Shown here: piece by piece, positions 1 to 814 of the stretch
How positions within the stretch are numbered: the first letter of the stretch is position 1
Layout: the number at the start of each line of letters is the position of its first letter
From: Candidatus Heimdallarchaeota archaeon
GTDB lineage: Archaea > Asgardarchaeota > Heimdallarchaeia > Heimdallarchaeales > Heimdallarchaeaceae
DNA length: 64,000 nucleotides
Assembly: GCA_021399345.1 (NCBI GenBank)
Contig: JAAFKI010000112.1
Location: 32,001-96,000, forward strand
Direction: 5' to 3'
The notes under the pieces: generated by a model
The model's database searches: none
Seen by the model: only the letters and a program-made list of their open reading frames with translations
Told to the model about the DNA's origin: nothing
Translations under genes and position numbers: made by a program

Positions 1-583
1 AACTCTTGCAGATAACACTTGTACCAACAACTTGGATGGTATCAATGTGGGACGTTCTTCTTTTTCTACTCTGACTGATAACACTTGTACAAACAACATT
101 GACAGAGGAATCTATGTAGAGTATTCTTCTGAAGTTACTCTGACTGATAACACTTGTACAAACAACAATTATGGTATCTATCTGCTTAATTCTTATACTT
201 GTCTTTTTACTGACAATCTTTTACAAGAAAATGAAGAATATGGAATCTACTTAAATTCTCTTTCTGATGACACCATTATTTATCACAATTATTTTGTAGA
301 CAATAACCTAGGAGGTATTTCACAAGCTAATGATAATGGAACAAATAATTTCTGGTGTAATAAAGAAACCAAACTAGGGAATTACTGGTCTGGTCACGAG
401 AAAGGAAAATATATTATTGATGGTTCTGCTAATTCAACGGATCCATATCCACTCAAAGAAATTTACGGCACTGAAAGAATCGGAGGTTCTTCTATCCTTC
501 TAATTTCCTTTATGATTTCAACTATTCTGATTACTCTTGTTAGAAGAAAGAGAAAACACGAAAAGGACGTTAATAATAAATGA
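1..583 (+). CDS. NosD/pectin-lyase-like right-handed beta-helix surface protein, 5'-partial, C-terminal TM anchor
   Basis: Frame is open from base 2 (TLADNTCTNNLDGI...). Repeated LTDNTCTNN.xGIY rungs, GNYW and DPYP motifs, hydrophobic tail followed by RRKRK. Confidence 0.85.
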   Translation, partial: TLADNTCTNNLDGINVGRSSFSTLTDNTCTNNIDRGIYVEYSSEVTLTDNTCTNNNYGIYLLNSYTCLFTDNLLQENEEYGIYLNSLSDDTIIYHNYFVDNNLGGISQANDNGTNNFWCNKETKLGNYWSGHEKGKYIIDGSANSTDPYPLKEIYGTERIGGSSILLISFMISTILITLVRRKRKHEKDVNNK

Positions 584-756: not shown

Positions 757-814
757 GGGATGAACAAGGCATTACTGAGAGCTTTTGCTCTATGACGAGT
801 CATAGTTAGTCTGA
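757..814 (+). ncRNA. Box C/D 2'-O-methylation guide sRNA (dual guide, predicted 23S rRNA H69/H71 targets)
   Basis: Degenerate box C GGGATGA 757-763; guide ACAAGGCATTA 764-774; D' CTGA 775-778; hairpin GAGC-TTTT-GCTC 779-790; C' ATGACGA 792-798; guide GTCATAGTTAGT 799-810; D CTGA 811-814. TATA-like TAATTATA at 730-737. Guides are complementary to conserved LSU motifs UAACUAUGAC and AAUGCCUUGU. Confidence 0.85.

Follow-up and report, generated by a model that had tools for sequence, protein, structure and literature searches.

An unannotated box C/D guide sRNA gene in Heimdallarchaeota with guides complementary to neighbouring sites of 23S rRNA

Positions 757 to 814 on the + strand of the window, that is, of the whole 64,000-nucleotide stretch of DNA analysed here, are a genuine and hitherto unannotated box C/D guide sRNA gene of the Heimdallarchaeota, within the Asgard archaea. 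It is very likely that this locus is an independently transcribed gene of its heimdallarchaeote host, whose product is a box C/D guide sRNA about 58 nt long. The evidence lies in the layout of its motifs, the complementarity of both guides to rRNA, its conservation among relatives, the covariation of its internal hairpin, and the presence of the genes for the partner proteins. This class of sRNA is already well known, and the gene represents a solid but fairly ordinary addition to it.

Layout, K-turns and surroundings of the sRNA gene

Read along the + strand, the 58 nt consist of GGGATGA, ACAAGGCATTA, CTGA, GAGC-TTTT-GCTC, TA, TGACGA, GTCATAGTTAGT and CTGA, which agrees with the succession of C box, guide, D' box, hairpin, C' box, guide and D box described in an earlier note on this DNA. 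As RNA, these elements are the C box GGGAUGA (757-763), the D' guide ACAAGGCAUUA (764-774, with C770 as the fifth base upstream of D'), the D' box CUGA (775-778), the hairpin GAGC-UUUU-GCUC (779-790), the C' box AUGACGA (792-798), the D guide GUCAUAGUUAGU (799-810, with U806 as the fifth base upstream of D), and the D box CUGA (811-814). The guide spacers measure 11 nt from C to D' and 12 nt from C' to D, lengths that sequence comparison finds maintained throughout the family. The locus presents C and D boxes, an internal D'/C' motif of the K type, spacers within 10-13 nt and a length within 50-70 nt, together with a complementarity to rRNA of at least 9-10 bp that places a base at N+5 in same-genus 23S.

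Both the GA of the tandem sheared pairs in the C box and the UGA.GA of the C' box are invariant across 24 aligned sequences, and the GA of the D' box is conserved in the family of the window's genome (f1). Within the genus the GA dinucleotides do not vary at all, and some relatives in family f10 are devoid of the G of D' (CCUA, CUUA or GUUA). The C box reads AGGAUGA in most of the genus and has the canonical form AAUGAUGA or AGUGAUGA in Heimdallarchaeum; where the consensus has U, genera g1 and g9 have G at its second position, which corresponds to the K-turn loop position L3. Where it cites Kuhn et al. 2002, one review lists this C-box uridine among the features on which L7Ae binding depends (PMC7994747). 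A terminal stem is absent from family f1, where the flanks UUA...UUAA oppose U.U beside the boxes, and present as CUCC/GGAG in the Thor-labelled relatives. Many archaeal sRNAs are also devoid of such a stem, which is therefore not strictly defining. The thermodynamic fold is unremarkable (z = -0.56), as is expected for guide RNAs.

The hairpin between D' and C', which the earlier note had considered more elaborate than a minimal K-loop, turned out to be a covarying 4-bp stem that closes a K-turn. Across 24 Asgard sequences 93.5% of its cells are paired, and three of its four pairs carry changes on both sides (19 cells), giving the variants GAGC/GCUC, GAGU/ACUC, GUCU/AGAC, GGAC/GUCC and GGGC/GCCC; none of 500 shuffles reached the observed value, and slid controls were only 34-53% paired. 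At the 3b/3n positions (position 5 of C' and position 2 of D') the combinations C/U, U/A, U/U, A/G and C/C all occur, position 2 of D' taking any of U, A, G and C, a free variation that K-turns tolerate. The stem begins right after the A of D' and ends three bases before the GA of C', so that C'/D' constitutes a complete K-turn rather than the usual archaeal K-loop, in the nomenclature taken from PMC6009581.

No open reading frame of at least 40 aa overlaps positions 584-814 on either strand. Its D box ends at 814 and is immediately followed by the stop codon (815-817, - strand) of fni, a convergent neighbour lying outside the RNA (815-1870, - strand) whose product is a type-2 isopentenyl-diphosphate isomerase according to TIGR02151 (365.5 bits, with a cut-off of 281.3); the sRNA is thus flush with the fni stop, as had been claimed. 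A run of seven Ts (835-841, + strand), located within the antisense coding end of fni, 21 nt beyond the D box, is by its sequence a possible archaeal terminator for a 3'-extended precursor. An inverted repeat, ATAGTTA-GTCTGAT-TAACTAT (803-824), overlaps the D guide, the D box, and the stop and last codons of fni, the sequence just past the D box (the end of fni, on the opposite strand) being a copy of the H69 target UAACUAU. This repeat, limited to the closest species (L011-L017), could sequester the D guide in a 3'-extended precursor, or is perhaps a coincidence. On the other side of the sRNA, positions 2-583 (+ strand) encode the C-terminal part of a NosD-like protein with parallel beta-helix repeats, whose hydrophobic tail and basic end suggest a surface protein anchored in the membrane; the gene is not kept as a neighbour in relatives.

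Upstream of the sRNA lies the BRE/TATA-like motif ATCAAAAAAGATAATTAT (719-736, + strand; TATA-like part 728-736), centred about 25 nt before the C box. Compared with the window, 21 distinct sequences of the genus are 96.3% identical over this motif, against 41.9% in the DNA upstream of it (695-718) and 50.7% in the spacer that follows (737-756), and the earlier claim of an own TATA-like box is supported by this footprint. Throughout the genome the motif AARRGATAATTA was found 11 times where about 14 occurrences would be expected, with no enrichment and no further sRNA genes revealed; as 719-736 is not over-represented, the footprint is specific to this locus. It is best read as a BRE/TATA promoter, a function that its conservation and position suggest.

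Guides, rRNA targets and the box C/D machinery

Neither a 23S nor a 16S gene was assembled in the window's MAG, which is 88.6% complete, and the targets were therefore read from the rRNAs of congeners; within the MAG, the exact target strings occur only inside unrelated coding DNA. The pairing with the genome's own 23S rRNA that the earlier note had proposed was accordingly replaced by pairing with 23S of the same genus, with which each guide forms 10 Watson-Crick pairs. All five same-genus 23S genes read GGAGCUAACUAUGAGCUUCUUAAGGUAGGCAAAUGCCUUGUC across the target region. Their helix 69 contains GCUAACUAUGAG and not the string UAACUAUGAC given earlier, which leaves the 5'-most base of the D guide unpaired. 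Against GCUAACUAUGA of H69, the D guide forms 10 Watson-Crick pairs and one G.U: counted upstream from box D, positions 2-11 pair with CUAACUAUGA, position 1 forms a U.G pair, position 12 stays free, and the duplex extends towards the D box by C1910 and a G.U. The fifth base of the guide stands opposite the second A of UAAC, the equivalent of E. coli A1913, in keeping with the N+5 rule. The base named in the earlier note thus stands, and its target string is one base off in this genus.

Regarding the D' guide, positions 2-11 form 10 Watson-Crick pairs with AAUGCCUUGU in the 23S of both same-genus and same-family rRNAs, an A.A mismatch occupies position 1, beside D', and opposite the fifth base lies a G, the G1940 equivalent. 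The target in H70/71 had been correctly predicted, including the distance of 27 nt between the two selected bases. Both targets fall within one 40-nt stretch, and the H69 and H71 sites are each the single best match of their respective guide in 23S and 16S. We take the selected bases to be E. coli A1913 and G1940 from an alignment anchored on psi1915/psi1917 (H69) and m5U1939.

A further argument, based on covariation between guide and target, was dropped: the loop of H69 shows no variation, changes at guide positions 2 and 12 are uncompensated in the five genomes with both the sRNA and a 23S gene, and no guide GANNCATGGTTACNCTGA, which would match the H69 of the same-order family f3 (UAACCAUGA, with a C at the 1915 position), was found in 83 genomes of the class. 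Another family of the same order (f4) deserves a separate mention. Two of its 23S genes, from L001 (G023) and L003 (G021), are about 4.16 kb long, and directly upstream of UAAGGUAG their H69 is replaced by an unrelated hairpin (cagcggtttg...caaaccgttgct), a sequence that suggests an insertion or intron at or beside helix 69.

The genes for the proteins of the box C/D machinery are present in the assembly. Those for Nop5 (PF01798, 229.8 bits) and fibrillarin (PF01269, 304.5 bits) are adjacent on contig C169, and that for L7Ae is located on contig C123 (PF01248, 90.4 bits). With the established archaeal system as a model, we infer that the sRNA is transcribed, assembled into an RNP and used for two methylations. 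L7Ae would bind to the C/D motif and to the stem-closed C'/D' K-turn, and a Nop5 dimer and two copies of fibrillarin would then assemble on the sRNA. The two guides would engage a single segment of nascent 23S rRNA, with helix 69 (its loop and 5' strand) as the partner of the D guide and the H70/H71 strand, 27 nt downstream, as that of the D' guide, and by the N+5 rule fibrillarin would 2'-O-methylate the A1913 and G1940 equivalents. A1913 lies at the tip of H69, is part of bridge B2a and contacts the decoding site. Holding both rRNA segments together may also aid the folding of domain IV.

This last effect could even be the main one, the sRNA then binding to rRNA chiefly as a chaperone of domain IV folding, and one or both sites being methylated little or not at all. 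Such roles have been proposed in print for dual guides (PMC4644070, PMC6009581), and the closeness of both targets within 40 nt would suit them, as would the non-canonical C box with its G at position 2, the missing terminal stem, and the drift of D' position 2 and of the D' guide within the genus. Nevertheless, both duplex registers put a base exactly at N+5, the GA pairs for the positioning of L7Ae and fibrillarin are invariant within the genus, and the same A is methylated in yeast and is a predicted target in Sulfolobus. We consider a mainly chaperoning RNA improbable and continue to regard the sRNA as a predicted methylation guide; chaperone and methylation roles are not mutually exclusive.

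Contig C169 also carries, outside the window, a second canonical dual-guide box C/D sRNA on its - strand, from position 65846 of the reverse-complemented contig. It reads AAUGAUGU-AGUUGCAACGAC-CUGA-UCAU-UGAUGA-UCGACUUUUGG-CUGA and has an ordinary 4-nt K-loop. Its guides match the opposite strands at the top of 16S helix 44 of a congener (11/12 and 9/11 nt), and the N+5 bases would be, by alignment, the equivalents of E. coli U1409 and A1492. The latter is a decoding-centre adenine.

Conservation and distribution among Asgard archaea

A BLAST search with a 101-nt query found the sRNA locus in 22 of the 25 genomes of the genus, which includes Heimdallarchaeota archaeon AB_125; the family also comprises the complete genomes of Candidatus Heimdallarchaeum endolithica and H. 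aukensis. The copy of one congener (G009) is 99% identical to the window over the 101 nt, whereas in the more divergent species of the genus the match runs from query position 24 to 80-83, equivalent to window positions 758 to 814-817, so that the similarity starts and stops at the predicted ends of the RNA. Across the 21 distinct sequences of the genus, identity to the window reaches 90.5% over the sRNA (757-814) and 93.3% over the D guide (799-810), and amounts to 60.6% downstream (815-855).

Beyond the genus, 24 sequences from several Asgard families all share the D-guide core UCAUAGUUA unchanged. A covariance model built from these 24 sequences and run on 151 sampled Asgard genomes found a single copy each in 46 of them: 12 of 13 in its own family f1, 25 of 26 in family f10 (with Thorarchaeota labels), all five in f20, the only one in f27, and 2 of 25 in f13, with no match in the 22 other Asgard families sampled. 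The exact D-guide pattern, searched in one genome per species over 185,579 species, gave 31 loci. About two thirds are labelled as Asgard (Heimdallarchaeota, Thorarchaeota, Promethearchaeota), and the Heimdallarchaeota labels among these matches agree with the earlier assignment of the gene to an Asgard genome; most of the remaining ones are labelled only 'archaeon' and have the full sRNA, and one, from Bathyarchaeota, is devoid of a C box. The conservation of boxes and guides in relatives, which the earlier note had made a test of its reading, therefore holds for 22 of 25 genomes in the genus and, as far as the D guide is concerned, across several Asgard families.

The two guides have had different fates. 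In relatives beyond family f1, the C' box, the D guide and the D box are kept, the D' guides are different, and no fni lies nearby, and this persistence of the D guide while D' guides change across families points to the H69 guide as an old, shared function. Judged from the sequences compared, only the Heimdallarchaeaceae-like family has the G1940 guide. Even within the genus, one subgroup (L027-L032; e.g. G002, G005, G008) has the D' guide replaced by ACAAAGAAUA, AAAAAGAAUA or AAAAAUGAGUG, for which no convincing match was found in rRNA, own 23S included. This subgroup retains the D guide, the boxes and the covaried stem GAGU/ACUC, and has a hairpin and a T8 run past the D box. By its sequence, its D' guide looks like one that is turning orphan, and the function at G1940 would therefore be dispensable or lineage-specific. 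For the D' guides of the Thor-labelled relatives, a pairing with UAGCCAA of H70 was considered and rejected, as it amounts to no more than 7-8 bp and their own 23S offers a better-matching site.

As to the neighbourhood, the adjacency of fni and sRNA is held through family f1 while the identity of the fni protein drops to 48-57%; the syntenic copies that the earlier note had proposed to look for are present in this family. This synteny, with a block that abuts the fni stop, would also be expected if 757-814 were a 3' element of the fni mRNA on the - strand (a terminator, a stability element or an antisense regulator) and no guide RNA at all. However, Thor-labelled and other Asgard families have the sRNA with no fni in its neighbourhood, and fni lies 1.4-3 kb away in AB_125 and L055. 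Moreover, the boxes, the spacer lengths and the rRNA complementarity are specific to the + strand, the conserved promoter motif faces that strand too, and the sole helix, of 4 bp, is too weak for a terminator. An element of the fni mRNA is thus highly improbable.

The layout itself was compared with chance expectation in the 3.27-Mb assembly, whose G+C content is 33%. A strict regular expression for the full C-guide-D'-spacer-C'-guide-D arrangement occurs once in it and in none of five block-shuffled genomes, whereas a relaxed pattern, with one deviation allowed in C, C' and D', matches 11 times, against 2-6 times in shuffled genomes. Of these 11 relaxed matches, only two have both guides complementary to rRNA in the correct register by 10 or more contiguous Watson-Crick bases, against none in the reversed-rRNA control; as a census of such genes in the genome, two loci are a lower bound. 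A half-motif census with 9-mers gave 48 matches, compared with 40 in the control, and has no discriminating power. Even though the boxes are short and the relaxed pattern also arises in shuffled AT-rich sequence, a chance array of box-like motifs in intergenic DNA is refuted by these pattern counts, by guides that match neighbouring rRNA sites over 10 nt, by conservation edges that coincide with the RNA ends in 22 genomes, by the covariation of the stem, and by the recovery of the sRNA with the covariance model in 46 of 151 Asgard genomes, and retains virtually no probability.

Among public sequencing runs, the DNA runs containing the stretch come from marine sediment, seawater and cold-seep metagenomes. 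In one cold-seep metagenome (run X13), the summed contig depth over 735-868 is 25-33 across the sRNA and about 4-6 in the flanks, with loose contig ends at 775 and 814; this one sample holds several related Heimdallarchaeota whose common stretch is the sRNA only. No RNA runs holding the stretch are listed among the public runs. One run labelled as RNA-Seq, flagged as probably DNA, has a 244-nt contig of low depth over 714-869 from a related strain; as such contigs show no ends, strand or level, it was left aside as evidence.

Known archaeal guides, eukaryotic snoRNAs and ancestry

In archaea, helices H68, H69 and H71 are hotspots of 2'-O-methylation, and the sites cluster densely around the position of E. 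coli A1912 (Dennis et al. 2015, PMC4644070). The supplement of the same work lists sR113 of Sulfolobus acidocaldarius, with 32,156 reads and a predicted target at 23S A2179 of its alignment, which is E. coli A1913, since A2178 of this alignment is A1912. Its D guide, CUCAGAGUUACU-CUGA, has the same register as GUCAUAGUUAGU-CUGA of the Heimdallarchaeal sRNA. Two further entries are of uncertain species assignment: sR91, from another crenarchaeon and listed with targets A2179 and G2211, is a dual guide for H69 and H71 like the Heimdallarchaeal sRNA, and sR40 is listed for G2206, which by offset corresponds to E. coli 1940 (PMC4644070, supplement). With Sac-sR113 (and sR91) listed for the same adenosine, this site is not peculiar to the Asgard archaea, and of the eukaryote-conserved site put forward in the earlier note, the shared modified nucleotide stands while an Asgard-specific link does not.

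The Heimdallarchaeal sRNA shares with the guides of Crenarchaeota the RNA class, the size and the N+5 logic, and no sequence similarity outside the boxes and the guide that the target dictates. Contrary to Sac-sR113 and sR91, it has G1940 as a second site, a stem-closed C'/D' motif, a G at position 2 of the C box, and no terminal stem. The genomic context differs as well: the Crenarchaeota in question are thermophiles with 60-130 sRNAs and K-loops, whereas here we deal with a mesophile-like, AT-rich Asgard genome with few recognisable sRNAs. The canonical archaeal sRNA, as Nolivos et al. 2005 is cited in PMC6009581 and PMC7994747, combines a terminal K-turn with an internal K-loop. Like it, the sRNA described here has two K-type motifs flanking guides of about 12 nt, with conserved GA/AG sheared pairs, but in family f1 the arrangement is inverted, the internal motif being stem-closed (4 bp plus a tetraloop) and the terminal C/D motif having no helix, whereas both motifs are stem-closed in the Thor-labelled relatives. 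Aiming both guides at nearby sites is common, as about 45% of Pyrobaculum sRNAs do so within 100 nt (Lui et al. 2018, PMC6009581). According to the same study, orphan guides arise by few substitutions, archaeal guide sites usually turn over fast, and exact sites are mostly unconserved between distant species (PMC6009581). The literature searched contained no catalogue of Asgard box C/D sRNAs.

On the eukaryotic side, snR63 guides the formation of Am2256 in yeast 25S rRNA, two bases 5' of psi2258, the counterpart of E. coli 1915 (PMC2794176); A2256 belongs to bridge B2a and makes contact with the decoding adenines (PMC8674143). Both sources bear out the equivalence of the A1913 position with yeast Am2256 that had been noted earlier. 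The same rRNA nucleotide is selected by yeast snR63, human SNORD46 and plant snoR442 (RF01232). The consensus of the latter ends in UCAUAGUUACUCUGA, with the D-guide register of the Heimdallarchaeal sRNA, and the similarity between both runs through the guide only. A scan of the window against Rfam, recommended in the earlier note, did not bring support: no family reaches its gathering score, the best snoRNA match being RF01232 with 14.9 bits (E = 1.5), through the guide, where the gathering score is 50 bits, and matches at E up to 10 are otherwise limited to spurious CRISPR-repeat, miRNA and snoRNA hits.

Orthology with snR63, SNORD46 and snoR442 can thus be judged on two counts: the target nucleotide is the same, and similarity ends with the boxes and the guide. 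The eukaryotic snR63-type snoRNAs are longer, and they are made and processed differently. As the shared target dictates both guide and register, common descent with snR63/SNORD46 is neither shown nor excluded. That the Asgard sRNA family, with its H69 D guide and stem-closed C'/D' K-turn, represents the vertical ancestor lineage of snR63, SNORD46 and snoR442 is a tentative idea, rather unlikely on present evidence. If true, the methylated A at the H69 tip and its guide RNA would have been inherited by the first eukaryotes from an Asgard ancestor, and not reinvented, and the stem-closed internal K-turn would represent an early step towards a snoRNA-like architecture.

The understanding of the box C/D RNP remains unchanged by this sRNA, the same site having already been predicted in Crenarchaeota. 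What is modestly interesting is the combination of a stem-closed internal K-turn, a G in the C box, and an H69 guide lasting across Asgard families. This genome seems to carry few canonical dual-guide sRNAs, and one of them is directed at the adenosine at the tip of H69, a base in contact with the decoding centre whose methylation occurs in yeast and human. Contrary to the usual fast turnover (PMC6009581), this guide persists across Heimdall- and Thor-labelled families. The RNA and its target provide a defined pair for reconstitution with Asgard L7Ae, Nop5 and fibrillarin, as well as one concrete data point on which rRNA methylations predate eukaryotes.
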